Assembly: GCA_034667685.1 (NCBI GenBank)
Contig: JAXDQU010000079.1
Location: 33,891-97,890, forward strand
Length of the DNA stretch: 64,000 bases
Source: Thermoplasmata archaeon
Lineage (GTDB): Archaea; Thermoplasmatota; SW-10-69-26; JACQPN01; JAJPHT01
Reading direction: 5' to 3'
Made by a program: the position numbers and the translations under genes. Under the pieces are notes generated by a model. That model saw nothing but the letters and a program-made list of their open reading frames with translations. It did not search any database and was not told where the DNA came from. Shown here in pieces: positions 25,381 to 43,148 of this stretch (its first letter is position 1; the number at the start of each line of letters is the position of its first letter).

Positions 25381-25393
25381 GCGCCCCCGTTGG

Positions 25394-25481
25394 CTCCGCA
25401 TGCGGAGACGCGGAGAGCGCGGAGGCCGCGGAGGTTGAAGGCACCGCGGTCACCGCGTCCTCCGCGCCTCCGCATGCGGAG
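25394..25481. repeat. Palindromic element of the CTCCGCATGCGGAG family (copy 1), after the paralog B stop
   Basis: ctccgcatgcggagacgcggagagcgcggaggccgcggagg ... cgcggtcaccgcgtcctccgcgcctccgcatgcggag. A second copy is at 43037-43127. Confidence 0.7.
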
Positions 25482-25535
25482 CCCGTCGAGGCGCCAAAAG
25501 AGCCTTAGCGGAAGCCCAGCCTGGCGCGGCGTAGC

Positions 25536-26228
25536 ATGAGCCGCAAGTGGCTGCGCGAGCGCAGCAAGGACTTCTGGTACAAGCTCGCCAAGAAGGAAGG
25601 GTGGCGCACCCGCGCGAGCTTCAAGCTCATGCAGATCGACGAGAAGTTCGACCTCTTCTTCGAGGGCGCGCGCGTCGTCGACCTGGGCGCGGCGCCGGGC
25701 GGCTGGAGCCAGGTCGCGGTGGAGCTGGTCGGCCCCGAGGGCAAGGTCGTGGGCGTGGACCTCGACCGCATCGAGCCCATGGAGGGCGTCACGTTCCTGC
25801 GCGGCGACATGACGCAGCCGGACACGGTGGCGCGCACCATGGAAGCGTGCGGCGGGGTCGCCGACGTCGTGATCAGCGACATGAGCCCCAACATCAGCGG
25901 CGCGTACGCCACCGACCACGCGCGCTCGATCCACCTCTGCGAGATGGCGCTCGACTTCGCGGGCAAGGTGCTCGTGCGCGACGGCGCGTTCGTCTGCAAG
26001 GTGTTCGAGGGCGACATGTTCCATCCGTTCCTGGAGCAGGTGCGCGCGCAGTTCCGCGACGTGAAGGTCGCCAACCCCGCCGCCAGCCGCGCCGCGAGCA
26101 GCGAGGTCTACGTCGTCGCGCAGGGCTTCAAGGGGCCGGGCAGGTACCCGCCGCTCGCGAAGCCCGCCGAGTGGGAAGAGGGCGACGAGCTGCCGGCCTC
26201 GCGGAAGGAGCGCAAGGCGCGCGGCTGA
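25536..26228 (+). CDS. rlmE: 23S rRNA (uridine-2'-O)-methyltransferase RlmE/FtsJ
   Basis: WRTRASFKLMQIDEKF...VVDLGAAPGGWSQV...DVVISDMSPN...CKVFEG. Confidence 0.9.
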   Translation: MSRKWLRERSKDFWYKLAKKEGWRTRASFKLMQIDEKFDLFFEGARVVDLGAAPGGWSQVAVELVGPEGKVVGVDLDRIEPMEGVTFLRGDMTQPDTVARTMEACGGVADVVISDMSPNISGAYATDHARSIHLCEMALDFAGKVLVRDGAFVCKVFEGDMFHPFLEQVRAQFRDVKVANPAASRAASSEVYVVAQGFKGPGRYPPLAKPAEWEEGDELPASRKERKARG

Positions 26229-26276
26229 GGCTGCGGCGCCGGCAGGATCATCCGCGCCGCGACGCTCGGCGCGGTC

Positions 26277-26858
26277 ATGCTCGTTCCCGCCACGACGCCC
26301 CTCGCCATCGCCACGTCGATCCTCGCGCTCGTCGCGGGGCTCGTGCTCACCTTCTCGGGCTATCGGCTCGCGCGCAGCCTCGCGACGATCGCGGGCTTCA
26401 TCACCGGCTTCGTCATCGGCCTCGGCCTGGGCGCCGCGCTGGCGGGCCCCGTGGGCGCGCTGGTCGGCGCCATCGTGCTGGGCATCGCGCTGGCGCTCCT
26501 CTTCCGGTTCGCGTTCCGCTTCGCGGGCGCGGTCGTGGGCGCGCTGGCGGGCATGTCCGTCGCGGCGAACCTGGGCTGGCCGATCTGGGCGCTCGTCGTG
26601 GCCGCCATCGTGGGCGGCGTCGCGGGCCTCCTGCTCAACAAGATCGCCATCGTGACGTTCACCGCGCTCGTGGGCGCGTCGCTCGCCGTCAAGGCGGGCG
26701 CCGAGCTGCTCTACGGCCTGACGCCGTACTACCTGAAGATGGAGGTGCTGGGGCTCCTCCTCGCCACGATCGTGCTCGCGTCGGCGGGCATCCTCTCGCA
26801 GATGCGCAGCCTGCGCGGCGAGGACGAGGCGCCCGGGGTCCGCGGCAGCGCGAGCTAA
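26277..26858 (+). CDS. Membrane protein, DUF4203-like (Gly/Ala-rich TM helices)
   Basis: Six hydrophobic helices with GxxxG packing motifs. Confidence 0.5.
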   Translation: MLVPATTPLAIATSILALVAGLVLTFSGYRLARSLATIAGFITGFVIGLGLGAALAGPVGALVGAIVLGIALALLFRFAFRFAGAVVGALAGMSVAANLGWPIWALVVAAIVGGVAGLLLNKIAIVTFTALVGASLAVKAGAELLYGLTPYYLKMEVLGLLLATIVLASAGILSQMRSLRGEDEAPGVRGSAS

Positions 26859-26891
26859 GCCTCAAGCCCCGTCGCCTGCTCGCCCGCGAGC

Positions 26892-27719
26892 ATGCAGGTC
26901 GTGCGCATCGCCCACAGCCCTGACCCGGACGACGCCTTCATGGCGTGGGCGCTGCACGCGGGCGTCGTGCGCGACCCGGAGCTGCGCGTCGAGCTCGTGC
27001 CCCTCGACATCGAGACGGCCAACCAGATGGCGCTCCGCGGCGAAGGCCCTGAGGCGACGGCGCTCTCGATGGCGACGTTCGCCCGTGTCGCGGACCGCTA
27101 CTGGCTGCTGCCGCACGGCGCGTCGTTCGGCGAGGGCTACGGGCCGATCGTCGTCGCGCGCAAGGAGGTCGATCTCCGCGAGGTCGAGATCGCGGCGCCC
27201 GGCGCGGGCACGACGGCCTACGCGACACTCCGCATGGCGCTCCCGCGGGCCCGCTGCCGCCAGATGCCCTTCGACGCGATCCTGCCCGCCGTCCAGCGCG
27301 GCGAGGCCGAGGCGGGCCTGCTCATCCACGAGGGGCAGCTCACCTGGCAGCGCGAGGGCGTCGTGAAGCTGCTGGACCTCGGCGTCTGGTGGAAGGAGGA
27401 GACCGGCCTGCCGCTTCCCCTGGGTGTCACCGCGATCCGCAAGGACGTGGGCCCCGCGCTCGCCGCGCGCGTCGACGCGCTCATGCGCGCCAGCATCGAG
27501 GCGGGCCTCGCGCGCCGCGCCGAGGCGCTCGCCTACGCGCGCGGGTTCGGGCGCGGCATCCCCCTGGAGGACGCCGATCGCTTCGTCGCGATGTACGTGA
27601 ACGACCTGACGCGCGACATGCGCCCGCGTGGCCTCGCCGGTGTGCACGAGTGGGTCCGGCGCGCCGCGGAGGCGGGCATCGTGCCGCGCGCGGACGTCCA
27701 CATGGCGCCATCTCCATAA
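26892..27719 (+). CDS. mqnD: MqnA/MqnD family protein, likely 1,4-dihydroxy-6-naphthoate synthase (futalosine pathway)
   Basis: N-terminal AHSPDPDDAFMAWAL matches the MqnD SPxPxDxFxxxAL signature. Periplasmic-binding-protein-like fold. A UbiA prenyltransferase lies two genes downstream. Confidence 0.65.
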   Translation: MQVVRIAHSPDPDDAFMAWALHAGVVRDPELRVELVPLDIETANQMALRGEGPEATALSMATFARVADRYWLLPHGASFGEGYGPIVVARKEVDLREVEIAAPGAGTTAYATLRMALPRARCRQMPFDAILPAVQRGEAEAGLLIHEGQLTWQREGVVKLLDLGVWWKEETGLPLPLGVTAIRKDVGPALAARVDALMRASIEAGLARRAEALAYARGFGRGIPLEDADRFVAMYVNDLTRDMRPRGLAGVHEWVRRAAEAGIVPRADVHMAPSP

Positions 27720-27777
27720 TCTTCATGAGCGAGCCTCCCGAGTCCGCCGCGTGGCGTCGCTCCGGCTCGCAGCGCGC

Positions 27778-30700
27778 ATGGCGTGGCGCAACCTCGTGCG
27801 CCGCCGCGCGCAGACGGCCATCGTGCTCGCCGGGCTTCTGGTGGGCACCGCGGTCGTGACCGCCTCGCTCACCGTGGCCGACAGCCTGCGCTACGGCATC
27901 CGCAAGGCGACGTACGATGGCCTGGGCCCCGCCGACGAGTTCGTGCAGCTCGCCGGCCAGCGCTACTTCCCGCAATCGGCGTACGGCGCGCTCGCCAACG
28001 ACAGCGCCCTGAGCGCGGCGAGCCATGCGCTCTCGCCCGTCGTCATCGACGTGGGCAGCGTCCGCGACGCGCGCACGCGCGAGACCGAGCCGGGCGTCGG
28101 GCTCGCGGGCTTCGACGCCAAGCTCGACGCACCCTTCGGGATGCTGACGCTCACCGATGGCCGGCGCGTGGACGGCAGCGCGCTGGGCCCGAACGACGCC
28201 TACCTGCGCGAGGACGTGGCCCGGCGCCTCGACGCCAAGGTGGGCGACACGCTGGTCGTGGGCGTGCAGCAGGCGGGCCTCCCGCTCACCGACCTCTCGT
28301 ACCCCGTCTCGGGAAGCATCAGCGGCGCGGGCGCGGGCTGCCCGACGGCGCCCGTCCCGGTCCCGAACCTGCCCGTGCAGCCGCCCTGCGCGTACACGCC
28401 CGACCCGGCCGACAACACCAGCTACACGATCCCCGTGGCGCGCGGCGCGGCGCTCATCACGATCCTGCTGGAGCCCATCGGGCCCGAGGACTCGCCCACG
28501 CGCCCCGACCTTGATATCATCGCGACCTCGCCCAGCGGCAACCGCACCGCGGCCACGGGCGGAGCGCCCGGCTCGCCCAGCGACCCCGCCGTCCTCCGCA
28601 TCGAGGGCAACCGCTACCTGGAACGCGGCAACTGGATCGTCCAGGTCACGACGAAGGGCGGCGCGGCGGGCAAGTTCACGGGCGCGATCTTCGTCTCCTA
28701 CGCGCAATACGACGCGACCGGCAGCGGCGCGGGCGAGGGCGCGACCGTCGTGGGAGACGCGGACGCGAGCGCGTACCTCGCGGTGGGCGCCAGCAGCGCC
28801 GCGCACGCCAACCTCACGCTCAAGGGCATCGTCACGCGCGAAGGGAAGGGTGCCTTCCTGGGCACGACGGGCCTCTTCGTCGGCCTCGCCACCGCGCAAT
28901 CGCTCGTGGGCCAGCCCGGCATGGTCAACGCGGTCAAGATCAGCAACGCGCACGACGCCGCGCCCCCGACGCAGGCCGCCACGCGCGTGCTCGACGGCCT
29001 GCGCGCCGCGAACCCGGACGATCCGGTCTACGATCACCTCGCGGTCGCGCCCGTGAAGGCGCAGGGGCTCGCCGCCGCCGAGCAGGAGAGCAAGTTCTAC
29101 CGCGACTTCCTCGCCGCCGTCTCCACGCTGACGCTCCTCGCGGGCGCGCTGCTCGTCGTGCACGTCTTCATCCTGCTCGCCGCCGAGCGCAAGCGCGAGC
29201 TGGGCGCCGCGCGCGCCATCGGCCTCCAGCGGCGCGACGTCGTGCTGTCGTTCACGATCGAAGGCTTCCTCCTCGCTCTCCTCGCCGCGGCGGGCGGCGT
29301 GCTCGTGGGCGTCGCGGGCGCGGGCGGCGTGCTGCTCGGCTTCGACTACATCCTGAGCGCGGTGGGCACGAACCTCGGCACGTTCGTGCTGCACCCCGAG
29401 GCGCAGAGCCTCCTTCTCGCCGCCGCGCTGGGCTTCGGGCTCACGCTCGCCGCCGCGGCCGGCGCCTCGTGGCGCGTGGGCGGCATGAACCTCGTGCGCG
29501 CGCTGCGCGGCCAGGAAGATGATATCACCGCGCCGCGCCGCTCGTGGACGGGCGTCGCGGGGCTCGCCGTGCTGGGCGCGCTCTCGCTCGCGGCGGGCCC
29601 CTTCGCGGCGCTCGCCTTCGGCCCCGCGTGCCTGATCGGGATCCTCGCGCTGCTGCCGCGCCGCGCGTGGGCCCTCGCGCTGGGCGGGCTCGCGCTGCTC
29701 GTCGAGGGCGCCCTCTCCATCTTCCTCCTGACGCCGCCGGCCGACGCCGCCGGCCGCGTGATGGGCGTCCTGCGCGGCGTGCCCCCCGCGCTGGGCCTCG
29801 CGCTCCTCGCGCTCAACACCGACGCCCTCGCGCGTGGCGCCGAGCGCGCCCTCTCGATGGTGAAGCGGCTGCGCCCCACCGCGCCCCTCGCCGTGCGCTA
29901 CCCGTTCCGCCGGCGCGGGCAGACCGGCCTCACCGTCTCGATGTTCGCCTTCGTGACGCTCGTGCTGGTCTTCTTCAGCATCTTCGGCACGACGTTCGCC
30001 CTTGATATCAACGGCGAGACGGGCGGCTACCACGTCTACGCGACGACGGACGCGCCCTACAGCGACCTGCGCTACGCCTATGACTTGCTGCCCGCGGCGG
30101 CGCGCGACCCGTACGCGCTGGCGAACGTGACCGTCCAGGACCCGTTGCTCGTGGCGACCGTGCCCGGCGGCGACCTGCTGATGCTCGACCACGCGCGGCC
30201 GCACTACAAGGGCGCGCCGGTGGACCGCGTCTACGCGACGCTGCCCGACTTCCCGCGCCGCGAGCAGTTCGCCTTCGCCGAGCTCGACCCGCACTATCCC
30301 AACGGGAGCGCGGCGTTCGAGGCGATCCTCAAGGACCCGACGCTCGCCATCGTCAGCGTCGCGTACACGCTCGACGAGACGGGCAATCCCGGCGCGCACC
30401 ACGTCGGCGCCGACCTCGACCTGCGCCTCGCCAGCGGCGAGAAGCACCTGCGCGTCATCGGCGTCATGAAGGAGCTGTACCTGGGCGGCGTGTGGGTCAA
30501 TCCGCTCGTGTTGCGCACCGGCTTCCAGAGCGTGCAGGGCGCCTACCTCCTGCGCACCGCGCCGGGCCACGATCCCGCCGAGGTCGCGCGCCAGCTCGAG
30601 CGCAGCTTCGACGGCACGGGCCTGCACGCGGTCGACCTCAAGACCGAGGCGGGCACCGTGCTGGAGGAGAACGAGCAGTTCCTCCGCATGTTCCAGATGT

Positions 30701-31080
30701 TCCTCGGCTTCGGCCTGCTCGTGGGCATCGCGAGCCTCGCCGTCGTCTCCGCGCGCAGCGTGCTGGAGCGCCGCCCGCACATCGGCGTGCTGCGCGCCCT
30801 GGGCCACACGCGCGTCTCGATCCTCACGTGGCTCGTGGGCGAGTCGCTCCTCGTCACGATCCTCGGCACGCTCGTGGGCGTCGCGGCGGGCTCGCTGCTG
30901 GCCTTCGGCGTCTGGTTCACCACCGTGCGCCCCGTCATGGACGTGCCGTTCAGCTACTCGTACGTCGTGATCCCGGTGATCCTGCTGATCACGTACGGCG
31001 CCGCGGTGGCCGCGGTCTTCCTGCCCGGATTCCTGGCGACCCGGGAAAGCCCGGCCGGCATGGTCAGGCGCGTGGACTAA
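27778..31080 (+). CDS. FtsX/MacB-like ABC transporter permease with two FtsX 4-TM modules and two large extracytoplasmic domains
   Basis: Start at MAWRNLVRRRAQTAIVLAGLLVGTAVV (internal Met of ORF 27628). Two FtsX repeats at about residues 470-600 and 980-1100. Confidence 0.8.
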   Translation: MAWRNLVRRRAQTAIVLAGLLVGTAVVTASLTVADSLRYGIRKATYDGLGPADEFVQLAGQRYFPQSAYGALANDSALSAASHALSPVVIDVGSVRDARTRETEPGVGLAGFDAKLDAPFGMLTLTDGRRVDGSALGPNDAYLREDVARRLDAKVGDTLVVGVQQAGLPLTDLSYPVSGSISGAGAGCPTAPVPVPNLPVQPPCAYTPDPADNTSYTIPVARGAALITILLEPIGPEDSPTRPDLDIIATSPSGNRTAATGGAPGSPSDPAVLRIEGNRYLERGNWIVQVTTKGGAAGKFTGAIFVSYAQYDATGSGAGEGATVVGDADASAYLAVGASSAAHANLTLKGIVTREGKGAFLGTTGLFVGLATAQSLVGQPGMVNAVKISNAHDAAPPTQAATRVLDGLRAANPDDPVYDHLAVAPVKAQGLAAAEQESKFYRDFLAAVSTLTLLAGALLVVHVFILLAAERKRELGAARAIGLQRRDVVLSFTIEGFLLALLAAAGGVLVGVAGAGGVLLGFDYILSAVGTNLGTFVLHPEAQSLLLAAALGFGLTLAAAAGASWRVGGMNLVRALRGQEDDITAPRRSWTGVAGLAVLGALSLAAGPFAALAFGPACLIGILALLPRRAWALALGGLALLVEGALSIFLLTPPADAAGRVMGVLRGVPPALGLALLALNTDALARGAERALSMVKRLRPTAPLAVRYPFRRRGQTGLTVSMFAFVTLVLVFFSIFGTTFALDINGETGGYHVYATTDAPYSDLRYAYDLLPAAARDPYALANVTVQDPLLVATVPGGDLLMLDHARPHYKGAPVDRVYATLPDFPRREQFAFAELDPHYPNGSAAFEAILKDPTLAIVSVAYTLDETGNPGAHHVGADLDLRLASGEKHLRVIGVMKELYLGGVWVNPLVLRTGFQSVQGAYLLRTAPGHDPAEVARQLERSFDGTGLHAVDLKTEAGTVLEENEQFLRMFQMFLGFGLLVGIASLAVVSARSVLERRPHIGVLRALGHTRVSILTWLVGESLLVTILGTLVGVAAGSLLAFGVWFTTVRPVMDVPFSYSYVVIPVILLITYGAAVAAVFLPGFLATRESPAGMVRRVD

Positions 31081-31316
31081 CGCAGGACCCACGCGCCCGC
31101 GACGACGCCGCCCACCACGAGCACGCCGCCCGCCGGTGCGTTCCACGCCGACGCGACGGCGCCCACGCCCAGCAGGGCGAGCCCGACGGCGGCGCGCGTG
31201 CGGCGCGGGACGATCATGCCCCGCCCTCGGCGCGGAGGGGCGCAAGACGCCCGCGGCCAGCGGACCTCGTGCGATAAGCACCACGGGTTGAAGCCCGGCC
31301 GGGCCGCTCGCCCCGC

Positions 31317-32303
31317 ATGGAACGAGGCGGGGGCCTGCTGTACCTGTGGCGCCTCTCGCGCCCCGAGGTCTGGCTCGTCACGATCATCCCGATGCACGTG
31401 GGCTGGCTCCTCGCCTCGCGCCAGATCGTGCCGGGCTTCGCTCAGTGGGCCGCGTTCTGGGCGAAGGCCTCGCAGGGCGGCGCCACGAGCGCGGACTTCC
31501 TCGCGACGCTCGCGGCGTGGTGGGGCGACGCGCGCGGCTGGGTCCTCGCCGCGATCGCCATGGGTCCCCTGGTCTGGCTCGCCACGCTTTGCATCAACGA
31601 CGTGCACGACCTGGAGAGCGACCGCGCCAACCCGCGCAAGGCGTCGAGCCCGCTCGTGCAAGGCGTCGTCTCGCGCGGCTGGGCGCGCGCGTGCGCGTAC
31701 CTCGCCGCCGCGGCCGCGCTCCTCGTGGGCGCGTTCGCGGGGCTCGCCTTCGACCTCCTTTTGCTATCGTGCCTCGTCCTCGCGTGGCTCTACAGCGCGC
31801 CGCCCGTCCGCCTCAAGACGAAGCCGGGCGCCGACGTGCTCGTCAACGCCGTGGGCGTGGGCGCGCTGGCCGCGCTCGCCGGCTTCTCGCTTGCCGCGCC
31901 GCTCTCGCAGGCGCCCTGGCCCTTCCTGCCGCAAGGCCTGCTCGTCGCCGCGGCGGTCTACGTCCCCACGACGATCGTGGACCTGGAGCCCGACCTCGCG
32001 GCCGGGTACGCGACGTTCGCCCCCGCGCTGGGACGCGAGCGAGCCTACCGCGTCGGCTTCGCCTGCTGGATCGCCGCGAACCTCGGCGCCGTCGCGCTCA
32101 GCGCCTCTGATATCATCCTGCCGCGGCGCATGCTCCCCCTGCTCCTCGTCTTCGCCCCGCTCCTCGTCTGGGAGTACCACCAGTTCATCGGCAAGGCGCG
32201 CGACGCGCCCGCCATGATCCAGGGCGTCATCCTCTGCTCGCTCAGCTTCGCCGCCGTCAACGCGCTCTGGGCCCTCATGTGGACCGGGCTGTGGATAGGT
32301 TGA
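31317..32303 (+). CDS. UbiA family prenyltransferase (MenA-like)
   Basis: NDVHDLESDRANPRK is the UbiA Asp-rich motif. Nine TM helices. Confidence 0.8.
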   Translation: MERGGGLLYLWRLSRPEVWLVTIIPMHVGWLLASRQIVPGFAQWAAFWAKASQGGATSADFLATLAAWWGDARGWVLAAIAMGPLVWLATLCINDVHDLESDRANPRKASSPLVQGVVSRGWARACAYLAAAAALLVGAFAGLAFDLLLLSCLVLAWLYSAPPVRLKTKPGADVLVNAVGVGALAALAGFSLAAPLSQAPWPFLPQGLLVAAAVYVPTTIVDLEPDLAAGYATFAPALGRERAYRVGFACWIAANLGAVALSASDIILPRRMLPLLLVFAPLLVWEYHQFIGKARDAPAMIQGVILCSLSFAAVNALWALMWTGLWIG

Positions 32304-32527
32304 TATCGGAGGCCAACGGCCCACCGAAGGGCGTATCCTCCCGAAGCGCCGAGGCGCCAGCATGACGCGCAGGATGGAGGACGCGCTGGTCGCCAGCGCC
32401 ATCGGCCTGCTGCTCTTCGCCGCGCTCTGGAACGCGCCCGTCGCCGCGCTCCTGAGCATCCTCGTGCTCGCCTGGACGCTGGCCCGCGAAAGCACGCGCG
32501 GACGCGCGAGGCCGAAGGGTTAGCGCC

Positions 32528-32698
32528 CGCGCATCTCCCACGTCGTCTTCTTCACGAACGCGTCCATGGAGCCCTTCCGCTCGCACCCTTTTTGCGCGAG
32601 CGCGCAGCGCTCGCGCAAAAAGCGCGCCCGGAAAGCGGGCTACTTGCCCCGCATCTCCCACGTCGTCTTCTTCACGAACGCATCCATCGAGCCCTTCT
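32528..32698. repeat. Direct duplication of about 50 bp of the FadB-like gene's 3' end, flanking a perfect palindrome TTTTTGCGCGAGCGCGCAGCGCTCGCGCAAAAA
   Basis: cgcatctcccacgtcgtcttcttcacgaacgcgtccatggagcccttc occurs at 32528-32577 and again, with one change, at 32649-32698 where it is the true C-terminus. Confidence 0.65.
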
Positions 32699-34556: not shown

Positions 34557-34570
34557 GGCGTTTTCCGGCC

Positions 34571-34683
34571 GCCAGGTGGGCCAAGTGGCGCCACGTGCGC
34601 CAGGTGGCCCGCATGGCCCACCTGTGCCACCTGGCCCACCTGGCCCACCTGGCGCACCTGGCGCACCTGGCGCACCTGGCAGA
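34571..34683. repeat. Palindromic array of 9-bp units: (CCAGGTGGS)x4, centre, then (CACCTGGCS)x7
   Basis: gccaggtgggccaagtggcgccacgtgcgccaggtggcccgcatggcccacctgtgccacctggcccacctggcccacctggcgcacctggcgcacctggcgcacctggc. It lies between the FadB-like start and tRNA-Cys. Confidence 0.75.
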
Positions 34684-34872: not shown

Positions 34873-34944
34873 AGCAGGGAGAGGGGATCGAACCCTCGAT
34901 CTTCAGATCTGCAGTCTGACGCCTAACCGCTCGGCCATCCCTGC
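34873..34944 (-). tRNA. tRNA-Cys (anticodon GCA), no encoded CCA
   Basis: GCAGGGATGGCCGAGCGGTTAGGCGTCAGACTGCAGATCTGAAGATCGAGGGTTCGATCCCCTCTCCCTGCT. Perfect 7-bp acceptor stem, anticodon stem TCAGA/TCTGA with loop CTGCAGA, T-arm GAGGG-TTCGATC-CCCTC. The D-stem appears to be only 3 bp. Confidence 0.75.
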
Positions 34945-35383
34945 GGGGTTGGTGGGGCGGCGGACGCCGTGAGCCGTATTTCAGGGTTTTGGACGACCCG
35001 GGCTGGCAGGTCCGGCCCGCTCCCCGTCGCGCCTTCACGGGCGGGGGGCGTGTCGGGTGGTCGCGGTTGGAGCGCGCGCCTCCGGGGAATCGGACTTGGA
35101 CGATGTTGGAGGTATCTTCCTGTTCCTGAAGCCACCCAGAGGAGCCCACGTCCCGGCGTGCGACCGTCGGGACACGGGCGACCGCGCGCTCCAGCCGCGG
35201 CCGCGGGCCTGATTTGCGTGCGACGCAAAAAGGAGTCGGCTCGCGGGGGGCGAGTAACGTGGAGGTGTTGCGTGATTGTCGGCATCGCTCCATTGAGCGC
35301 TCTCCGAGGGCAGCCGATCGACCAGCCGGGGAGCGAGGCAAGGTGGCGCTGCAGAGAAAGCGCAGGCGTGGCGAAGGGGCGCC

Positions 35384-35905
35384 ATGCGTTCGCTCGAGCC
35401 GTCGCTTTCCCAGGGTCCGCGCGCGGACATCTACCGCACGGTGGCCCGCGTGCCCGGGGCGCACCTGCGCGGCATCGAGCGGATGACGGGGCTGCCGCTC
35501 GGGCAGGTGCTCTACCACCTCGATCGGCTGGAGCGGATGGGGCTCGTGACGTCGGCGCGCGACTGGGGCTTCCGGCGTTATTTCCTGGCGTGGGAGATCG
35601 ACCGGCGCGAGAAGAAGGTGCTCGGCGCGCTCCGGCACGAGGTGCCGCGGCGGGTGCTGCTGGCGCTGCTGGAGCGGGAGCCGCAGGCCCACAAGGATCT
35701 CCAGGCGGCGGCGGGCGTGGCGGGCAGCACGCTTTCGTTCCATCTCCAGCGGCTCGTGGCGAGCGGCGTGCTGCGGCGCGAGCGCGAGGGCGTCTCGCAG
35801 CGCTACAGCCTGGCGGAGCCCGAGCTGCTGCGGCGGGAGCTGCTCGCCTACGGCGCCAGCTTCGAGGACCCTCTCGTCGACCGGTTCGTGCGCGATCATT
35901 CGTGA
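35384..35905 (+). CDS. Winged helix-turn-helix transcriptional regulator (ArsR/TrmB-like)
   Basis: Two wHTH-like segments (IYRTVARVPGAHLRGIERMTGLPLGQVLYHLDRLERMGLV; LLALLEREPQAHKDLQAAAGVAGSTLSFHLQRLVASGVL). Confidence 0.6.
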   Translation: MRSLEPSLSQGPRADIYRTVARVPGAHLRGIERMTGLPLGQVLYHLDRLERMGLVTSARDWGFRRYFLAWEIDRREKKVLGALRHEVPRRVLLALLEREPQAHKDLQAAAGVAGSTLSFHLQRLVASGVLRREREGVSQRYSLAEPELLRRELLAYGASFEDPLVDRFVRDHS

Positions 35906-35914
35906 GGCGTACCC

Positions 35915-36592
35915 ATGCGCTTTTTCCCCGGCCCGCCCGCGTGGGGCCTGGGTGCGCCCCTGGTCCTCGGCGATGGCACGTACGTGAGGGACGGCCTCTC
36001 CGCGATGGTGGATTTCCTGCATCGCTACGCGGCGCCCACCGGCGCGCGGGGCAGCGTCCTCCTGATGGCGGGGGGCCTTCTCGTGCTCACCTTCCTCTTC
36101 ACGGCGTTCCTCTTCCGGAGCACGATCGTGGGCGACCTGGCGCCCGTGGCGAACGCGCGCCGCCCCCTCCCCCGTGCCCGGCTGCCCGGCGAGCGCCCGC
36201 GCGCGGCGGCCGGTCCCGCGCGCGCGACGCCGGTGCCCTTCGACGCGGCGCGCAAGCTGGGCCACGAGAGCGCGACGGGGCTCGACGAAGCCTTCGACGA
36301 GCTGGCGGGCATGGGCGTCGAGGCGCGCATCGTGCAGAGCCGTGCGACGCAGAAGCTGGTGCGCCTCTACGCGTGCGCGTCGTGCGCGCAGGGCGGCGCG
36401 GGCATCTCCGGGTGCGAGCATGAGCGTGGCCTCGTCGCGGGCGTCTTCGAGCGCCTGAGCGGCGAGCTCGCCAAGGTCGAGGAGGTCGCGTGCGCGGCGC
36501 GCGGCGCGCCCCACTGCGAGTTCGAGGTCCGCCACGCGCCGCTCCTGCGCATCCGGCCCGTGGCGCGTCGTGGCGGGAGGGCGCGCGCGTGA
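35915..36592 (+). CDS. V4R (4-vinyl reductase) domain protein with an N-terminal TM segment
   Basis: C-terminus LVRLYACASCAQGGAGISGCEHERGLVAGVFERLSG...CAARGAPHCEFEV matches the V4R Cys pattern. Confidence 0.6.
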   Translation: MRFFPGPPAWGLGAPLVLGDGTYVRDGLSAMVDFLHRYAAPTGARGSVLLMAGGLLVLTFLFTAFLFRSTIVGDLAPVANARRPLPRARLPGERPRAAAGPARATPVPFDAARKLGHESATGLDEAFDELAGMGVEARIVQSRATQKLVRLYACASCAQGGAGISGCEHERGLVAGVFERLSGELAKVEEVACAARGAPHCEFEVRHAPLLRIRPVARRGGRARA

Positions 36593-38688
36593 GGCGCCGC
36601 TTCCTGGGGCTCGTCGCGATCCTCCTGGCGGGCGGCGCGGGCGCGCTCTTCGGCCTCGCGGGGCACGCGGCGTTCCTGCTGGTGTCTCACAAGGCGCTCT
36701 CGCTCAACGGCGCCCTGCGCGCGCGCTGGGACACGGCGCGCCAGGCGTGGGTGCTGGGCGCGGCGCTCCTCTCGCTCCTGCTCGCGAGCAAGGCGGCCGG
36801 GCTCCTGCGCCTGCGCGACCTCGCGCGCGACATGCTCGGCGCCGCGGTGGGCGCGGGCGCGGGCTTCCTTCTCTACGCGCTTGGCTACGTCGCGGCGGGC
36901 CATCCCACGGGCGCGGCGGGCAGCTTCTATGCGATGGACTACTGGGGCGTGCTCGACACGCTCACCGTCGCGGAGCTCGTCGCGGCGATCCTGGGCGGCG
37001 TCGTGGGGCTCATCGTCATCCGCTTCGGCTGGAAGCTCTACGGGGTGCTCGCCTACGTCGCGTTCGTGAGCATCGTGGCGGGCTACTTCGCGTACGTGTT
37101 CAACGTCGCGCTCCCCAAGGTCCCGCTGCAGGCGCTGCCGTTCAGCATCTTCCTCCTGTGGGCCGAGGGGATGAGCCTCGCGATGGTCGTCGTGCACGCC
37201 TTCTACGGGCTCGACAACTTCGTGAAGCGCCGCTGGGAGCGCACGCCCGACAAGGTCGCGTTCAGCCGGCACTACCTGCCGCGCGTCGCGTTCCACTACG
37301 CGTGCTTCAACGAGCCGCCCGAGATCGTCTTCGACGCGCTCGCGCGCTTCAAGGAGCTGGACTATCCGAAGGACCGCTATCTCGTCATGGTGTGCGATGA
37401 CAGCACCGACGAGAGGTGCCGCGCGCCCGTCGAGCAGTTCTGCCGCGAGAACGGCTTCGTCTACGTCCACCGCACGGACCGGCGCGGCTTCAAGGCCGGC
37501 GCGCTGAACAACGCCCTGCGCCTCACGCCGCCCGACGTGGAGATCATCAGCGTCATCGACGCGGACTACCACCTGGAGCCCGAGTACCTGCGCGAGACGG
37601 TGGGCTACTTCATCGACGCGCGCCTCGGCTTCCTCCAGACGCCGCAGGATTACAGGAACGTCCACCAGTCGTTCCTCACGCGGCAATATTACTTTGCGGA
37701 CGGCTACTTCTACCGCGCCATCATGCCCAGCCGGAACGAGGCGAACGCGATCAGCTTCTGTGGCACGATGGGCATGGTGCGCCGCGAGGCGCTCGAAGGC
37801 GTCGGGGGCTGGGCCGAGAAGCACGTCACGGAGGACTGCGAGCTTTCGGTCCGGCTGCTCGACGCGGGCTGGCGCTCGCTCTTCATCCCGAAGACGTTCG
37901 GCAAGGGGCTCATCCCGCCCACCTACGACGCGTACAAGAAGCAGCACCACCGCTGGGCGTTCGGCGGCGCGAAGGTGCTCAAGGCCCACCTGGGGAAGCT
38001 CATCGGCCCCAGCGGGATGACGCTGCGCCAGCGCTTCGACTTCTTCATCTCCTGCCTGCAGTGGTTCGACGGCGTCTACACCGTCATCATCGCGGGCGCG
38101 GTCGCGGCCATCGCGATCGGCGAGATCCGCGGCCATCCGCTGGAGATCTACCACCAGAACGAGATCGCGCTCTTGGGCCTCGTGCCGATCTTCCTCCTGC
38201 TCGACGGCTTCGCGCGCCTGCACCTCGCGCTGCGCCGCTCGATGAACCTCTCGATGTGGGGCACGCTCAAGGTGATGGGCGTCTGGTACGCGATCAAGTT
38301 CGTCCACATGCGGGCCGCGCTGAAGGCCGCGCTCGGGTTCAAGGTGCCCTTCGTGCGCACGCCCAAGGCGCCCGCGGGGCGGCCCACCGCGAGCCAATCC
38401 TTCTGGCGCGCGATCCGCCTGACGCCCTTCGAGACGGGCTTCTTCCTCGTGCTCACGAGCATCAGCGTCGCGCTCTTCGCCATGAGCTGGGGCACGTGGG
38501 GCCTCTCGAAGGTGCTCCTGGAGGTGTGGGTCACGATGTACGCGCTCGTGTTCCTCGCGGCGCCGCTCTACGCGTACAAGTCGTTCCGGACCTTCGTGCC
38601 CGACGACGAGATGCCCACGCTGGCCGCCGGCTTCTCGCTGCGCCGCCGCTCCGCGCCCCCGAGCGTGGGGCGCGCGCCGGGGCCGTAG
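36589..38688 (+). CDS. Membrane-embedded family-2 glycosyltransferase (cellulose/hyaluronan-synthase-like processive GT2)
   Basis: DDSTD, DADY, TED and QHHRWAFG (QxxRW) motifs. Four or five N-terminal and several C-terminal TM helices. GTG start overlapping the V4R stop. Confidence 0.8.
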   Translation: MRRRFLGLVAILLAGGAGALFGLAGHAAFLLVSHKALSLNGALRARWDTARQAWVLGAALLSLLLASKAAGLLRLRDLARDMLGAAVGAGAGFLLYALGYVAAGHPTGAAGSFYAMDYWGVLDTLTVAELVAAILGGVVGLIVIRFGWKLYGVLAYVAFVSIVAGYFAYVFNVALPKVPLQALPFSIFLLWAEGMSLAMVVVHAFYGLDNFVKRRWERTPDKVAFSRHYLPRVAFHYACFNEPPEIVFDALARFKELDYPKDRYLVMVCDDSTDERCRAPVEQFCRENGFVYVHRTDRRGFKAGALNNALRLTPPDVEIISVIDADYHLEPEYLRETVGYFIDARLGFLQTPQDYRNVHQSFLTRQYYFADGYFYRAIMPSRNEANAISFCGTMGMVRREALEGVGGWAEKHVTEDCELSVRLLDAGWRSLFIPKTFGKGLIPPTYDAYKKQHHRWAFGGAKVLKAHLGKLIGPSGMTLRQRFDFFISCLQWFDGVYTVIIAGAVAAIAIGEIRGHPLEIYHQNEIALLGLVPIFLLLDGFARLHLALRRSMNLSMWGTLKVMGVWYAIKFVHMRAALKAALGFKVPFVRTPKAPAGRPTASQSFWRAIRLTPFETGFFLVLTSISVALFAMSWGTWGLSKVLLEVWVTMYALVFLAAPLYAYKSFRTFVPDDEMPTLAAGFSLRRRSAPPSVGRAPGP

Positions 38689-38773
38689 GCACGGACGTCA
38701 CGGCCGGAACGTTCCACTCCGTTCAACGAGCGATCCGAAACGCTTGCGGCCCCGTCCCGGTCTGGCCGCGTCC

Positions 38774-39331
38774 ATGCGAGGAATGCTTCTGGCCTTGGCC
38801 CTGCTCCTGCCGCTCGCGGGATGCGCGGCCCCTTCGACGACTCCGCAGCCCGACGTGGCGCCCGCCGCCGCCCCGCCGCCCGTGGACGCCGCCCCCACCC
38901 AGCCGCTCGCGTTCGAAGGCATGATGCCCGCCTACGCGGAGGCGTGCGGCTGGACCCCCGTCGTGGGCCAGTGCGCCGACGCGCCGCCCACCGCGGACTT
39001 CTCGAAGGCGATCTACGAGCCCGCGCTCAACGGCACGCCCGCCGCCGCGCGCGTGACGTTCACGTGGGAGGCCGCGTCGCCGGCGAACACGCAGATGACC
39101 GGCTTCATCCAGGATCGCAGCGACCAGGGCGTCGTGGACCTGGCGTACCTGACCGGCGCGTCGCCGCTGACGCTGGAGGTCAAGGACCTGCACCTGAAGG
39201 GCAAGCTCTCGTTCGTGCTCGCGGGGCCGCTGGAGAACACGCCGGACGGGCCGGGCGGCGCCGCGGCCAGCGAGAGCCCCGCGGACCAGCCCTGGAAGCT
39301 CGCGGGAAACGTCACGCTGGCGCCGCGGTGA
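38774..39331 (+). CDS. Lipoprotein, hypothetical
   Basis: MRGMLLALALLLPLAGC lipobox. Start at the internal Met of ORF 38744. Confidence 0.5.
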   Translation: MRGMLLALALLLPLAGCAAPSTTPQPDVAPAAAPPPVDAAPTQPLAFEGMMPAYAEACGWTPVVGQCADAPPTADFSKAIYEPALNGTPAAARVTFTWEAASPANTQMTGFIQDRSDQGVVDLAYLTGASPLTLEVKDLHLKGKLSFVLAGPLENTPDGPGGAAASESPADQPWKLAGNVTLAPR

Positions 39332-40385
39332 CGATCGCGCGCAGCGCGCGCTCCAGCACGCGCACGCTGCGCTCGAAGTCCGCGATCTCGATGCGCTCGT
39401 GGGGCGTGTGGTCCAGCGTGCTATCACCCGGGCCGTACGCGACGGTCGGGCACCTCCACACCGGCGCGAGCAGGTTCGCGTCCGAGGTGCCCGTCTTGCG
39501 CACGTAGCGGGGCGCCAGGCCCTCGTCGCGGATGGCGCCCACGAAGGCGCGCGTCAGGAGCGCGTTCTTCTCGCCCAACCACGCGGGCGCCCACTCGGGC
39601 ACGTCGAGCTTGGCGGCGGGCCCCGCGCGCTCGCGCAGGAAGCCCAGGAACGCGGGCGTGTCGAAGCCCGGCGGAGTGCGCGTGCTCCCCGAGAGCCTCG
39701 CGCGGACGCGCCCCGAAGGCAGCAGCTCCGTGTGGAACTCGTTGAGCTTCACGGTGGGCATCTCGAACATGCTATCACCGTGCCGCTGGCCGAGGTACAT
39801 CTGCACGGCGTGCCAGAAGGCGAGGCCGCGGTCCGGGACGCTGGGATGCGGCGCGCCGGTGTGCTGCAGGTCGTCCTCGACCTCGTAGCGGATCTTCACG
39901 ATCCCCTTGTAGCCCAGCGTGACGCCGTTCGTGCCAGAGGGCTCGCCGATGACGAGCGCCTCGGGGCGGTGCTTGTCCAGAAGATGTCGCGCGCCGTTCG
40001 ATGGTCCTTCCTCGTCGCACGCGCCCACCACGACGAGCCGGTGCGTGTCGCAGTCGAGGAAGCGCGCGGCGGCGCACGCGAAGGCGGCGAGCGGCCCCTT
40101 GGCGTCGACCGCGCCGCGCCCGTGGAGCCAACCCCCCTCGCGCCGCACGGGGAGCGGGGGCGCCACGGTGTCGATGTGGCCCACCAGGAGGATCTCGCGC
40201 GGCCCGCGCCCCGCGACGGCGACGGCGTTCCCGGCCGCGTCGCGATGCGCGGCAAGCCGGCGCGCGCGGCACGCATCCACGAACGCGGAGACGGCGCGCT
40301 CGGTGTCGCCCGTGACGCTGTCGACCGCGACGAGCGCGTGCAGAAGGTCCGCGTCCTCCACGAGGGGCGCGAGGCCGCGACCCAT
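39312..40385 (-). CDS. lysK: M20 family [LysW]-lysine/ornithine hydrolase (LysK / ArgE-like)
   Basis: LLVGHIDTV...GAVDAKG...DEEG metal-binding motifs of the ArgE/DapE family. It is the last gene of the LysW cluster. Confidence 0.75.
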   Translation of the reverse strand: MGRGLAPLVEDADLLHALVAVDSVTGDTERAVSAFVDACRARRLAAHRDAAGNAVAVAGRGPREILLVGHIDTVAPPLPVRREGGWLHGRGAVDAKGPLAAFACAAARFLDCDTHRLVVVGACDEEGPSNGARHLLDKHRPEALVIGEPSGTNGVTLGYKGIVKIRYEVEDDLQHTGAPHPSVPDRGLAFWHAVQMYLGQRHGDSMFEMPTVKLNEFHTELLPSGRVRARLSGSTRTPPGFDTPAFLGFLRERAGPAAKLDVPEWAPAWLGEKNALLTRAFVGAIRDEGLAPRYVRKTGTSDANLLAPVWRCPTVAYGPGDSTLDHTPHERIEIADFERSVRVLERALRAIVTAAPA

Positions 40386-40403
40386 GAAAACGTTGTCGCC
40401 GCG

Positions 40404-41042
40404 TCAAGCGGCGCTGGGCGCGCGGAAGGCCGCGAGCATCGCCACGAACGCCACGGCCAGAAGCACGGCGGCCCACGCGGGCGGCACGACGGTGGCGATC
40501 CACCCCAGGAGCGTGCCCAGGCCGGTCCACGCGCACGACCACACGACGCACGCCACCAGCGAGAGCACCAGGAACACGCCCGGCTCCATGCCGGCCTTGC
40601 CCGAGGCGTAGGCGAGGCGGGCGCGGTCGCGCGTCGAGAACTTCGCGGCCAGGAACCGCGAGAGCGGCGCGCGGGCCAGCCCGTCGCTCAGGTCGTCCAC
40701 GTCGAGCCCCGCGCGCCACCACGCGCCGTGCCGCCGCATCGTGCGCAGCGGGCGCAGGCGGTACCAGGCGTAGAACGCGACGTCCGAGAGGAACGCGCCG
40801 GCGAGCGCGGCCGCGAAGAGCGCGACGGAGGGCCCGCGCCACGCGGTCGCGATGCACGCCACGGCCGCGAAGCCGAGGTGGCCGGGCACGTAGCGCCCCC
40901 AGAGCGGCACCGCCTCCAGCGAGGCGACGAGGAAGAGGACGAGCGCGTAAGCCGCATCGGGGCCCCAGGCCGGGAACATCGTGCGCGTTGAGGCGCGGGG
41001 TGACATAAGCGCCTCGGTTTGGATGCGGACCGCAAAGCGCAC
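40404..41042 (-). CDS. DedA/VTT-domain membrane protein
   Basis: Hydrophobic helices with the SNARE-associated/DedA pattern. It sits inside the lys operon. Confidence 0.55.
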   Translation of the reverse strand: MRFAVRIQTEALMSPRASTRTMFPAWGPDAAYALVLFLVASLEAVPLWGRYVPGHLGFAAVACIATAWRGPSVALFAAALAGAFLSDVAFYAWYRLRPLRTMRRHGAWWRAGLDVDDLSDGLARAPLSRFLAAKFSTRDRARLAYASGKAGMEPGVFLVLSLVACVVWSCAWTGLGTLLGWIATVVPPAWAAVLLAVAFVAMLAAFRAPSAA

Positions 41043-41051
41043 CGGACGTGA

Positions 41052-42203
41052 TCAGGCACGCGCGGCCTTCGCCGTCGCCTCGACCGCGCGGTCCACCTGC
41101 GCTTCGTCCACGACCAGGGGCGGGAGATAGCGGATCGTCGTCGCCCCGGTGGGAAGGGTGAGCACGCCCTCGGCCATCAGCGCGTTGAGGACCGGCACGT
41201 TGCGGCTGCGCAGCTCCAGCCCGACCATCAGGCCGCGGCCGCGCACCTCGCGCGCCCCCTCGCCCGCCGCGCGCGCCAGGCCGTCCAGGAGGCGCGGGCC
41301 CAGCTTCGCGGCGCGCTCGGCGAGACGCTCCTCGGCGATGACATCAAGGACCGCGAGGCCGGCCGCGCAGGCGAGCGGCGAGCCGCCGAACGTGTTGCCG
41401 TGCGCGCCGGTGGGCAGCTTCGCGGCGTCGTCGGTCAGGAGCACGCCGCCCATCGGGATGCCCGCCGCGACGCTCTTCGCGAAGCAGAGGATATCAGGGG
41501 CGACGTTCTCCTGCTGGCAGGCCCAGAAGCTGCCGGTGCGCGCGAAGCCCGTCTGGATCTCGTCGAGGACGAGCAGCGCGCCGGCATCGTGCGCGATGTC
41601 GGCCGCCGCGCGCAGGTAGCCGGGCGGAGGGACCTGCACGCCGCCCTCGCCCTGGATCGGCTCGAGGACCACGGCGGCGGTCTGCGACGTGACGGCGGAC
41701 TTCAGCTCCTCCTCGCTCCCGTACGTGACGTGCGTCACCGGCTCCAGGAGCGGGAGGAACGGCTCGCGGTACTCCGCCTTGTGCGTGAGCGAGAGCGCGC
41801 CGAACGTCCGGCCGTGGAACGCGCGCTTCGTGGCGACGAACCCGCTGCGGCGCGTCGTGCCGCGGGCGAACTTGAGCGCAGCCTCGATGGCCTCCGTCCC
41901 GCTGTTCGCCAGGAAAGCACGCTCCAACCCACGCGGCGCGGTGGCGACGAGGCGCTCCAGGAAGAGCGCGCGCTGGTCGTTGTGGTACGTCTGGGGCAAG
42001 CCGATCAGCCGCCCCGCCTGCTCGCGGATCGCCTCGACGACCTTCGGGTGGCAGTGGCCCACGTTGCCCACGCCGTAGTTCGCGCCGAAGTCGAGGTACT
42101 CCCGCCCCTCCGCGTCCCACAGCCGCGCCCCCGCGCCGCGCATGATGCTGATGGGGCGCTTGGGGAAGACGCCCGACTCGCGGCGCTGCTCGATCGCCTT
42201 CAT
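41052..42203 (-). CDS. lysJ: Class III aminotransferase, [LysW]-aminoadipate semialdehyde / acetylornithine aminotransferase
   Basis: LDFGANYGVGNVGHCHP...LVLDEIQTGFARTG...FAKSVAAG (PLP lysine). Start MKAIEQ at 42203. Confidence 0.9.
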   Translation of the reverse strand: MKAIEQRRESGVFPKRPISIMRGAGARLWDAEGREYLDFGANYGVGNVGHCHPKVVEAIREQAGRLIGLPQTYHNDQRALFLERLVATAPRGLERAFLANSGTEAIEAALKFARGTTRRSGFVATKRAFHGRTFGALSLTHKAEYREPFLPLLEPVTHVTYGSEEELKSAVTSQTAAVVLEPIQGEGGVQVPPPGYLRAAADIAHDAGALLVLDEIQTGFARTGSFWACQQENVAPDILCFAKSVAAGIPMGGVLLTDDAAKLPTGAHGNTFGGSPLACAAGLAVLDVIAEERLAERAAKLGPRLLDGLARAAGEGAREVRGRGLMVGLELRSRNVPVLNALMAEGVLTLPTGATTIRYLPPLVVDEAQVDRAVEATAKAARA

Positions 42204-42214
42204 CTGGTCGGTGC

Positions 42215-43015
42215 TCAGCAAACGTGCGTGCCTCCTCCCTGGAGCGCGGCCGTGACGGGCGCGGCCGTGTTGGCCGTGGCGAAGACGATCCGCGGCACGC
42301 CAAGGTCGAGCGCCTCGCGCGCGCCGAGGATCTTCTTCTTGAAGCGCCCCTGCGCGAAGCCCTCGTAGCTCGCCAGCTCCGCGACAGGGATCGTGGGGAT
42401 GAGGGAGGCGGGATCGGCGACGTCGCGCAGCAGGCCGGCGACGTTGCTGAGGATCAGCAGGTGGCTCGCCCCGAGCGCGCCCGCGATCGCGGCGGCCGCG
42501 CGGTCCGCGTCGGCGTTCACGGCCTCGCCCGCGGTGCTGATGGCGGGCACGGTGACCACCGGGAGATAGCCGTTTGATAGCAGCAGCCGCAGCAGGCCCG
42601 CGTTCACCGTCTCGATGGTGCCGGTGTGGTCGCCGCGCAGCATGACCTTCTTGCCGTCCACGACGGCCTTGATCGCCTCCTTGCGCTGGCCTTCGAGCAG
42701 GCGCCCGTCGACGCCCGTGAGCCCGACCGCGTTGCAGCCGCGCTTCTGGAGCGACTCGACGACGCGCAGGTTGAGCTTGCCGCTCGCCATCGCGAACGCG
42801 TCGAGCGTCGCCGCGTCGGTGAAGCGCGAGACGTGGCCGCTCGCGGACGTCACGAAGCGCGGCGGGATGCCGAGCTTCTCCGAAAGCTGGTTCGTCTCGT
42901 CGCTCGCGCCATGCACGAGGACGACGCGCTCGCCGTCCTTCCACATCTGTGCGACGTCGGCGAGGACGGCCTCGACGTCGATGCCGGCGCCGCCGCCCAC
43001 TTTCACGACGATCAT
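42215..43015 (-). CDS. lysZ: [LysW]-aminoadipate/glutamate kinase (amino-acid kinase family)
   Basis: MIVVKVGGGAGID...VLVHGASDE...VNADADRAAAAIAGAL. Confidence 0.85.
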   Translation of the reverse strand: MIVVKVGGGAGIDVEAVLADVAQMWKDGERVVLVHGASDETNQLSEKLGIPPRFVTSASGHVSRFTDAATLDAFAMASGKLNLRVVESLQKRGCNAVGLTGVDGRLLEGQRKEAIKAVVDGKKVMLRGDHTGTIETVNAGLLRLLLSNGYLPVVTVPAISTAGEAVNADADRAAAAIAGALGASHLLILSNVAGLLRDVADPASLIPTIPVAELASYEGFAQGRFKKKILGAREALDLGVPRIVFATANTAAPVTAALQGGGTHVC

Positions 43016-43036
43016 GACGTCGCCCTCCGACCCAGT

Positions 43037-43127
43037 GCTCCGCATGCGGAGACGCGGTGCGCCGCGGAGGTCGCGGAGTCCGAGAGGCGCCGCGGTCCCC
43101 GCGCGCTCCGCGTCGCCGCATGCGGAG
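43037..43127. repeat. Palindromic element of the CTCCGCATGCGGAG family (copy 2), inserted in the lysY-lysZ intergenic spacer
   Basis: gctccgcatgcggagacgcggtgcgccgcggaggtcgcggagtcc...gcgctccgcgtcgccgcatgcggagc. The first 20 nt are identical to the 25394 copy. Confidence 0.7.
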
Positions 43128-43148
43128 CCGCGAAGCGTGGAAGCGCGC

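Follow-up and report, generated by a model that had tools for sequence, protein, structure and literature searches.

Repeats of the REP/REPIN type are well studied in Proteobacteria and little in archaea. Other short repeats also settle between genes: mycobacterial MIRUs are inserted at the stop/start junctions of operons, preserving both reading frames and translational coupling, and Correia/NEMIS, RUP and the archaeal PATEs (MITEs) are short, non-coding, dispersed and capable of forming hairpins, and can alter mRNA processing when they lie in transcribed spacers. A REPIN consists of conserved palindromic ends around a variable spacer that still pairs (Bertels & Rainey 2011, PMC3116915), and in the REP super-families one terminus of the palindrome bears the tetranucleotide GTAG or CGTC (Di Nocera 2013, PMC3733652). 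Organelles are reported to contain hairpin repeats as well, such as the sponge mitochondrial RHEs (PMC2800124) and the 'palindromic microsatellite repeats' of Fusarium mitochondrial DNA (PMC7218506). Here we describe two related palindromic elements, A and B, in a 64-kb stretch of DNA from a Thermoplasmata archaeon (the window, to which coordinates refer), together with the long intergenic hairpins that surround them; B is located inside a lysine biosynthesis (lys) operon.

Because their layout matches the published definition of REPINs (PMC3116915), we read A and B as a REPIN-like family. We lean towards regarding them as non-autonomous hairpin repeats of this kind, their family being one of many in a lineage-wide intergenic class. 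The genome DNA searched comprises 72.6 kb, namely the window and 8.6 kb beyond its right edge (contig L167). The source genome, from an uncultured archaeon, has a GC content of ~72%, and its nearest relatives are metagenome-assembled genomes (MAGs) of Thermoplasmata's phylum, Thermoplasmatota. The window's LysZ and RlmE match NCBI proteins of a Thermoplasmata archaeon MAG at 100% identity. Gene starts outside the JGI-called region are calls based on GC content at third codon positions (GC3).

Elements A and B

Both elements proposed in an earlier sequence-only reading are present where it placed them (Table 1). In a global alignment A and B are identical in 78 of 92 columns (84.8%); the similarity reported by that reading stands, and is higher than its figure of about 75% over some 90 nt. 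Against ~1 Mb of comparison DNA, blastn gives the pair E = 1e-9. The 20-mer CTCCGCATGCGGAGACGCGG is the same in A (25394-25413) and B (43038-43057) and forms, with the preceding G, a common 21-mer GCTCCGCATGCGGAGACGCGG; the internal blocks GCCGCGGAGGT and CCGCGGTC and the far end CCGCATGCGGAGC, which the same reading had listed, are likewise found in both elements. The ends of the family are formed by the palindrome GCTCCGCATGCGGAGC. The 10-mer CCGCATGCGG occurs exactly four times in the window, always at an end of A or B, where 0.48 occurrences were expected and none of 100 shuffles reached four. A, B and the copy found in the closest relative (contig L171) all have the conserved ends GCTCCGCATGCGGAG, and the inner part is 75–83% identical and still pairs.

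Each element matches its own reverse complement as well as it matches the other, and each forms a single near-perfect hairpin of ~39 bp per arm, with a core of about -78 kcal/mol. With short flanks included, the RNA minimum free energy is -83 kcal/mol for A and -80 kcal/mol for B (z = -9.7 and -7.1), and none of 200 shuffles was as stable. The flanks of A and B are unrelated to each other. An independent JGI metagenome contig (L001) and a Logan contig (L004) contain element B without a single difference, and it is therefore not an assembly artefact; A is known from the window alone.

Element A lies 12 nt past the stop of its upstream gene (25380) and 53 nt ahead of the rlmE start (25536). The upstream gene had been taken for a lipoprotein gene, with which its lipobox-like signal agrees, and its product can now be specified as a BNR-repeat protein. 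In relatives another gene precedes rlmE. The region 23673-25535 of the window contains this BNR-repeat lipoprotein gene (23818-25380) as an extra gene compared with relatives L163 and L165, where rlmE directly follows the lyase gene; it shares 56% identity with its paralog, the BNR gene at 20845-22473, and lies between A and another hairpin, H6. AT-richer motifs such as CAAAAGAGCCTTAGCG, AAGAAACGCTAAGAG and GAAAGAACGCTTATATGG are found at 25495-25512, 23785-23801 and ~440-455 (minus strand), 25–45 nt ahead of start codons and just past hairpins, and resemble the B recognition element (BRE)/TATA promoters of leaderless genes.

The lysY-lysZ junction

The placement of B in the lysY-lysZ spacer is confirmed; the spacer lies inside the lys operon, lysW-hcs-lysX-lysY-lysZ-lysJ, and in relative L159 the two genes meet in a clean ATGA overlap. 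On the mRNA (minus) strand B begins 20 nt past the lysY stop and ends 21 nt before the lysZ ATG (43015-43013). Folding predicts that the lysZ Shine-Dalgarno (SD) sequence pairs with a CGCUUCC segment on the other side of the hairpin, with pair probabilities of 0.68–0.99. An effect of B on lysY/lysZ expression is plausible because of this predicted sequestration. B would substitute a 133-nt spacer for direct ATGA coupling, its basal stem pairing the new lysZ SD with sequence past the lysY stop. A ribosome terminating on lysY would open this pairing, so that translation of lysZ would still depend on completion of lysY; the stem, at -80 kcal/mol, might also serve as a 3' barrier or pause site. 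The mechanical list of open reading frames (ORFs) places the start of lysZ (row 42215..43045, minus strand; 276 aa) at an ATG within B's GCATGC palindrome (43043-45). The gene truly begins at 43015 and encodes 266 aa, and hairpin palindromes can mislead start-codon calls.

Comparison of this spacer among relatives, a check that the sequence-only reading had proposed, found it empty in one relative, filled by a B-family copy in another and occupied by other hairpins elsewhere. Relative L159, whose LysZ matches that of the window at 82%, has the clean stop/start overlap CCCATGATTGTC. In L157/L158 (LysZ 85%) the ATGA overlap is followed by a 51-nt in-frame extension with GCCGCCGGAGCC. At 10001-10075 of L157, the called LysZ of GCA_021325135.1 has 17 additional N-terminal codons, MIRSDSEDGRRSPQAAAS, ahead of the conserved IVVKVGGG; these 51 nt resemble what is left of a hairpin-element spacer, now read in frame. 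Spacers of 100 nt are found in L160 (LysZ 86%; hairpin of GATCCGCG units) and L162 (LysZ 87%; hairpin of CGCGAAG units), which are 91% identical to each other, and a 170-nt spacer with a much longer hairpin is found in L169 (LysZ 89%). The hairpins of these three relatives are unrelated to B.

The closest relative, L171 (LysZ 91%), has the right arm of a B-family hairpin ending in CGCCGCATGCGGAGC, followed by GCCGGAGGCG ATGGA ATG. This arm is 72–81% identical to the arms of B, and the exact motif GCCGGAGGCG stands at the same place as the lysZ SD motif of the window. Between the window and L171, identity of the lysZ genes is 85.6% overall and 70% at third codon positions. The presence of a B-family copy at the orthologous site of L171 makes B at least as old as the split between the two lineages. 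Empty orthologous sites reveal insertion, and unrelated stems at one junction reveal rapid stem turnover.

Long hairpins in the window and in other genomes

A search for ungapped stems found nine long hairpins in the 64 kb, whereas three Markov-randomised controls contained none. A folding-based census used an RNAfold sliding window filtered on paired fraction and energy density. With bulges allowed, there are ~13 long hairpins in the window (H1-H6, A, H8, B and H10-H13; Table 1) and two more in the 8.6 kb of L167. The sequence-only reading had remarked neither on these ~13 like hairpins, nor on the differing hairpins at the same junction, nor on the GGAGG-containing motif described below. Most arms are composed of tandem 6–9-nt units, and the unit differs between hairpins. 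TRF finds arrays in both arms of most hairpins, and for several of them lag identities exceed the 99th percentile of the background. The asymmetry of H8, with seven units opposite four to five, shows unit gain on one arm. To judge by matches of 14–18 nt, H3 is a possible distant relative of A and B. In co-directional spacers the hairpins lie 0–22 nt past the upstream stop (0, 2, 12, 19, 20 and 22 nt).

Many of the hairpins are followed by a short motif. All three occurrences of the exact 11-mer CGCCGGAGGCG in the window directly adjoin a hairpin (H2, H6 and H13), and the exact motif also stands after a hairpin in L163 and L171. H6 and H13 have the 17-mer CTCCGCCGGAGGCGGCC in common despite their unrelated stems, and near-copies of CGCCGGAGGCG follow H5, H10, B (as the lysZ SD) and A. 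Motif-like sequence is present beside 6 of the 13 hairpins, compared with 4.4% of random sites (P ~1e-5, the pattern having been chosen post hoc). Its six co-directional instances all lie sense-downstream of the hairpin, and the motif may be a landing site, a part of the element or an RNA signal.

Table 1. Hairpins, their parts and associated motifs in the 64-kb window
Feature	Position	Strand	Description
H1	496-575		hairpin of GGGGCTC x5 units; abuts the stop of gene 569-1372 (-)
H2	11735-11821		hairpin of GGGAAGAA units in a divergent region; exact motif CGCCGGAGGCG at 11721-11731 (-)
H3	12414-12534		121-nt hairpin with GCGATGCGGAGCGCGCGGAG
H4	15226-15319		hairpin of ACGCCAAG units between convergent genes
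H5	22492-22570		hairpin of CCCGAGGNG units, 19 nt past a stop codon; followed by CGCCGCAGGCG
H6	23694-23755		hairpin of GGGAAGAC x3 units, 22 nt past the lyase stop; followed by CTCCGCCGGAGGCGGCC (23757-23773)
A, extended stem	25378-25496		flanks GAGCGCC...GGCGCC add pairs, 49 bp in total; begins at stop codon TGA
Element A	25393-25482	unstranded	90-nt hairpin; each arm ~3 tandem CGCGGAG-type units (TRF period 9/8, both arms)
A, left terminal palindrome GCTCCGCATGCGGAGA	25393-25408		conserved REP-like end CTCCGCATGCGGAG at 25394-25407
A, right terminal palindrome CCTCCGCATGCGGAGC	25467-25482		
CCGTCGAGGCGCC	25483-25495	+	diverged copy of the 3' motif CCGCCGGAGGCGG after A; read by eye, unmatched by the regular expression
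H8	34571-34680		asymmetric hairpin and 9-nt tandem array; GCCAGGTGG x4-5 opposite CCACCTGGC x7
TCGGAGGGCGAC	43019-43030	-	diverged 3' motif; provides the lysZ SD GGAGGG (43023-43028), 7 nt ahead of the ATG
Element B	43037-43128	unstranded	92-nt hairpin of A's family; lysY-lysZ spacer, both genes on the minus strand
B, terminal palindrome GCTCCGCATGCGGAGA	43037-43052		
B, terminal palindrome TCGCCGCATGCGGAGC	43113-43128		1 mismatch
CGCUUCC	43139-43145	-	4-10 nt past the lysY stop; predicted partner of the lysZ SD
lysY stop codon TGA	43149-43151	-	overlaps the lysZ ATG as ATGA in L159
H10	49596-49673		hairpin of AAGGGGAGC units, 2 nt past the LigD-PrimPol stop
H11	51131-51265		135-nt hairpin at convergent gene ends
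H12	54316-54421		hairpin of TTCCGA units in a divergent intergenic region
H13	56291-56397		hairpin of GAATCTCC units past the GH15 stop; followed by CTCCGCCGGAGGCGGCC (56376-56392)

Several hairpin families are found at unrelated loci, which demonstrates copying between loci. H4 has a second copy ~52 kb away, past the window, that is 88% identical over 139 nt. The duplication (window 15182-15414, L167 4697-4872) comprises 52 nt of left flank, which include a short stem plus T-run (CCTCGGTTGCTGCGAGGTTTTTCTTTTCATTTTC), a 77-nt hairpin and a 37-nt right block; in the window, an additional 58 nt separate the hairpin from the right block. Both copies occupy intergenic regions between convergent genes, and the flanking genes are unrelated (PIN versus epimerase, and unknown versus peptidase S8). 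One compensatory change, C-G to T-A, was read by eye between the two copies. In relative L159 a 58-nt family, CCACAGGCGAACGGCGAA, has 4–5 copies in 20.8 kb. Among the sites taken are the lysW-hcs and ligase-Ku junctions; in the window and L157 these junctions measure 1–2 nt and are free of hairpins. Relative L160 contains two families of two copies each, and the GAATCTCC units of H13 are also found, at another locus, in L163. The PrimPol spacer holds hairpins of different sequence in the window and L159. The 41 kb of GCA_021325135.1 (L157 and L163) contain only this hairpin of L163, decayed and with its motif, in the lyase-rlmE spacer.

Similar structures occur outside these relatives. A weak BLAST match led to Gemmatirosa kalamazoonensis, a cultured bacterium of 74% GC, where four like-built hairpins are present in 50 kb and none in the controls. 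On its two megaplasmids, BLAST locates two families at ~40 and ~56 places; we know of no description of them. The homology between copies stops at the hairpin ends, and the number of units varies from 4–5 to 7; these copies and H8 together demonstrate unit gain and loss. The units observed (L173, plasmid 1, 540000-589999; L174; L175) are CGCGGAG, CGCAGAGGA, CTCCRCG and GGGACTC. Neither the GCATGC terminal palindrome nor the CGCCGGAGGCG motif was seen at the Gemmatirosa copies inspected. A like-built hairpin of CACAGATNN units is located at 5734-5828 of L030, from the high-GC Thermoplasmatota MAG SMAG_U14304. The pattern CCGCATGCGGN{55,85}CCGCATGCGG, applied to genome contigs, retrieved unrelated repeats among the matches listed: four-palindrome arrays of Solirubrobacterales, and xanthomonad and sphingomonad REPs. 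The repeat of the Solirubrobacterales MAGs (L005-L124, e.g. L006 4419-4503) is abundant and different, an ~85-nt array of four short palindromes of the form NNNCCGCATGCGGNNN / GGCGCATGCGCC / GCACATGTGC.

A tRNA-Cys gene (34873-34944, minus strand) near H8 is followed on its own strand by a run of six T, among the few oligo-T tracts of the window. An archaeal cluster of the non-homologous end joining type, encoding an ATP-dependent DNA ligase, Ku and the LigD primase-polymerase (46574-49594, plus strand), adjoins the lys operon; relatives preserve its synteny. Public short-read contigs often start or end inside hairpins, as expected of assembly breaks (L002, L003, L168, L166 and L171): L002 and L003 begin within B, L168 breaks off inside H1 at window position 531, and at the start of L171 what remains of an Illumina adapter, GCTCTTCCGATCT, is joined to a hairpin arm. 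The JGI contig L001 ends ~100 nt from H8.

Origin of the hairpins and comparison with known systems

If A and B are REPIN-like repeats, hairpins of this class would be copied to new intergenic sites and would survive only where they are harmless, mostly just past a stop codon, including stop/start junctions within operons. The copying might rely on a single-strand, hairpin-recognising, IS200/RAYT-like activity, or on recombination at the conserved motif. The stems would change fast, with 6–9-nt tandem units gained or lost on one arm and mirrored on the other, presumably through unit slippage and palindrome correction, and such turnover would leave unrelated stems at the same site in related genomes. 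The sequence-only reading had suggested a mobile MITE-like or REP-like element. Its REP-like side is supported by the related copies, the unrelated flanks and the REPIN-like layout. MITE-type transposition was not shown: there is no transposase in the 72.6 kb, and target duplication is ambiguous at A and B.

A number of observations weigh against a REPIN-like origin. Domains of transposases, RAYTs or integrases were found neither among the genes of the window and its L167 extension nor in the JGI gene tables. The A/B family has two copies in the 72.6 kb of genome and one orthologous copy in the closest relative. Metagenome contigs scanned with GCTCCGCATGCGGNGNCGCGG gave 32 matches, all of them single-end chance matches outside hairpins, and no family member (the collection evidently lacks the source sample); two scans of viral contigs and a phage BLAST also returned no member. 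As a target duplication, CCGTTG|...|CCGTCG around A matches at 5 of 6 positions, with a chance probability of roughly 0.01–0.05, and around B only (C)ATGA is duplicated, which is needed to preserve both genes. The alignment of A and B contains no compensatory pair changes. Element A is also 76% identical to a Gemmatirosa hairpin built of the same units, so part of the similarity between A and B could stem from common unit composition. A GGAG-containing stretch lies 7–12 nt before the lysZ ATG in all filled alleles and looks homologous; an old spacer whose stem was turned over in place would therefore fit as well as repeated insertion. Sequestration of the SD was not seen as a general trait, being strong for B and variable at the other junctions.

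The most serious competing view is that the hairpins are functional elements of RNA 3' ends (terminators, pause sites or exonuclease barriers) that arose and were kept in place by structural selection, the likeness of A and B being due to gene conversion or to the same preferred unit. We judge this rather unlikely. In its favour, hairpins in co-directional spacers keep close to the upstream stop and leave BRE/TATA-like room before the next gene; the 3' motif keeps to the sense-downstream side there; the same spacers hold hairpins of different sequence (the PrimPol spacer in the window and L159, the lysY-lysZ spacer in five lineages); and H4 and its second copy differ by a compensatory change. 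The window is also poor in oligo-T, with only six runs of at least five T or A in 64 kb. Archaeal intrinsic termination, however, generally uses oligo-T without a hairpin. No T-run follows A or B, none of the six runs being located there. Classical terminators are excluded for A and B, as no T-run directly follows the stem. A conventional-looking bidirectional terminator is present elsewhere in the window, between convergent genes (32575-32633), with the stem GCGCGAGCGC...GCGCTCGCGC flanked by TTTTT / AAAAA. Structural selection is also hard to reconcile with sites that stand empty in relatives of equal GC content (lysY-lysZ in L159; lysW-hcs and ligase-Ku in the window and L157), with hairpins inside operons and in divergent promoter regions (H2 and H12), with a relative that retains about one decayed hairpin in 41 kb (GCA_021325135.1), and with identical families at unrelated loci.

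Three further explanations receive far less credence. A dedicated regulator of the lysine operon, either an attenuator or a metabolite-sensing leader for lysZ, would suit the location of B inside the operon and its predicted sequestration of the lysZ SD, but the sequence of B is unconserved among relatives and absent in L159, and its sister copy A lies at an unrelated locus. Such a role is very improbable. Among Rfam families (gathering threshold and E <= 1) only the tRNA-Cys passes; B and the other hairpins reach merely sub-threshold matches to generic eukaryotic miRNA precursors, and Rfam families are excluded for the hairpins since the gathering threshold is not reached. It is scarcely credible that the hairpins are integron attC sites and the flanking genes cassettes of a CALIN-type array in an archaeon. 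Their variable sequence and conserved shape, their location right past stop codons, their short conserved basal motif and the extra BNR gene bracketed by H6 and A recall such arrays, and archaeal integrons do exist (PMC9668308). Yet all 13 hairpins lack RYYYAAC...GTTRRRY core sites, the neighbouring genes are syntenic housekeeping genes that occupy both strands instead of a co-oriented cassette array, no integrase domain was found in the genes of the window, in L167 or in the JGI gene tables, and the extra BNR gene is a paralog of its neighbour. The attC identity was rejected on the core sites, the syntenic core flanks and the integrase result.

That two GC-rich, low-complexity hairpins should resemble each other by chance, without common origin, had been named by the sequence-only reading as the outcome that would undo its proposal. 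Both are indeed built of CGCGGAG-like units, and the Gemmatirosa hairpin of the same units resembles A. Against coincidence stand the identical 21-mer at one end and the 13-mer at the other, which include a GCATGC core foreign to the unit, the 10-mer confined to the four ends, the blastn E-value and the same terminus at the orthologous site of L171, and chance resemblance is effectively refuted.

This Thermoplasmata lineage carries about one long hairpin per 5 kb, including at the stop/start junctions of core operons (lysine biosynthesis and Ku-ligase), with turnover so fast that orthologous spacers hold unrelated stems. The empty, filled and differently filled alleles form a natural series for the effects of a very stable mRNA stem on archaeal transcription, RNA decay and coupling, and the hairpins offer a view of palindrome growth through unit slippage and arm-to-arm correction. 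In practice, they break short-read assemblies and inflate ORF calls through starts inside the GCATGC palindrome. We advance only as a tentative and doubtful extension that high-GC soil Thermoplasmata and Gemmatimonadota may carry an undescribed class of self-renewing hairpins, with mirrored, slippage-rewritten stems beside a GGAGG-containing motif, doubling as 3'-end and coupling elements of transcription units in these oligo-T-poor archaea.

Among described systems, REPINs share with A and B the inverted, conserved palindromic ends, the less conserved spacer that pairs, the single hairpin of ~100 nt, and the extragenic location in dispersed families with unrelated flanks. They differ in that the host here is an archaeon and no RAYT was found within 72.6 kb, and in the inner stem of tandem 6–9-nt units, the many unrelated families found together and the asymmetric GGAGG-containing motif after many hairpins. 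Neither GTAG nor CGTC ends the palindromes, as the A/B termini read GCTCCGC...GCGGAGC and CGTC appears solely in A's flank, 3 nt beyond the element. MIRUs resemble B in their placement at stop/start junctions inside operons, but are direct tandem repeats carrying small ORFs and not long hairpins. MITEs are likewise short, non-coding, hairpin-capable and dispersed, and can lie in transcribed spacers; their terminal inverted repeats match a parent insertion sequence (IS) and their target duplication is fixed, neither of which was shown for A and B, and no IS element is present within 72.6 kb. The organellar repeats are reportedly also invasive, lineage-specific, intergenic hairpins, some of short repeated units, but belong to organelle genomes, with unrelated sequences and another replication context. 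The Gemmatirosa families differ in their bacterial host, yet share with the archaeal hairpins the architecture, even similar units (CGCGGAG and GGGACTC), the dispersed copies, present there by the dozen, homology confined to the hairpin and a varying number of units.

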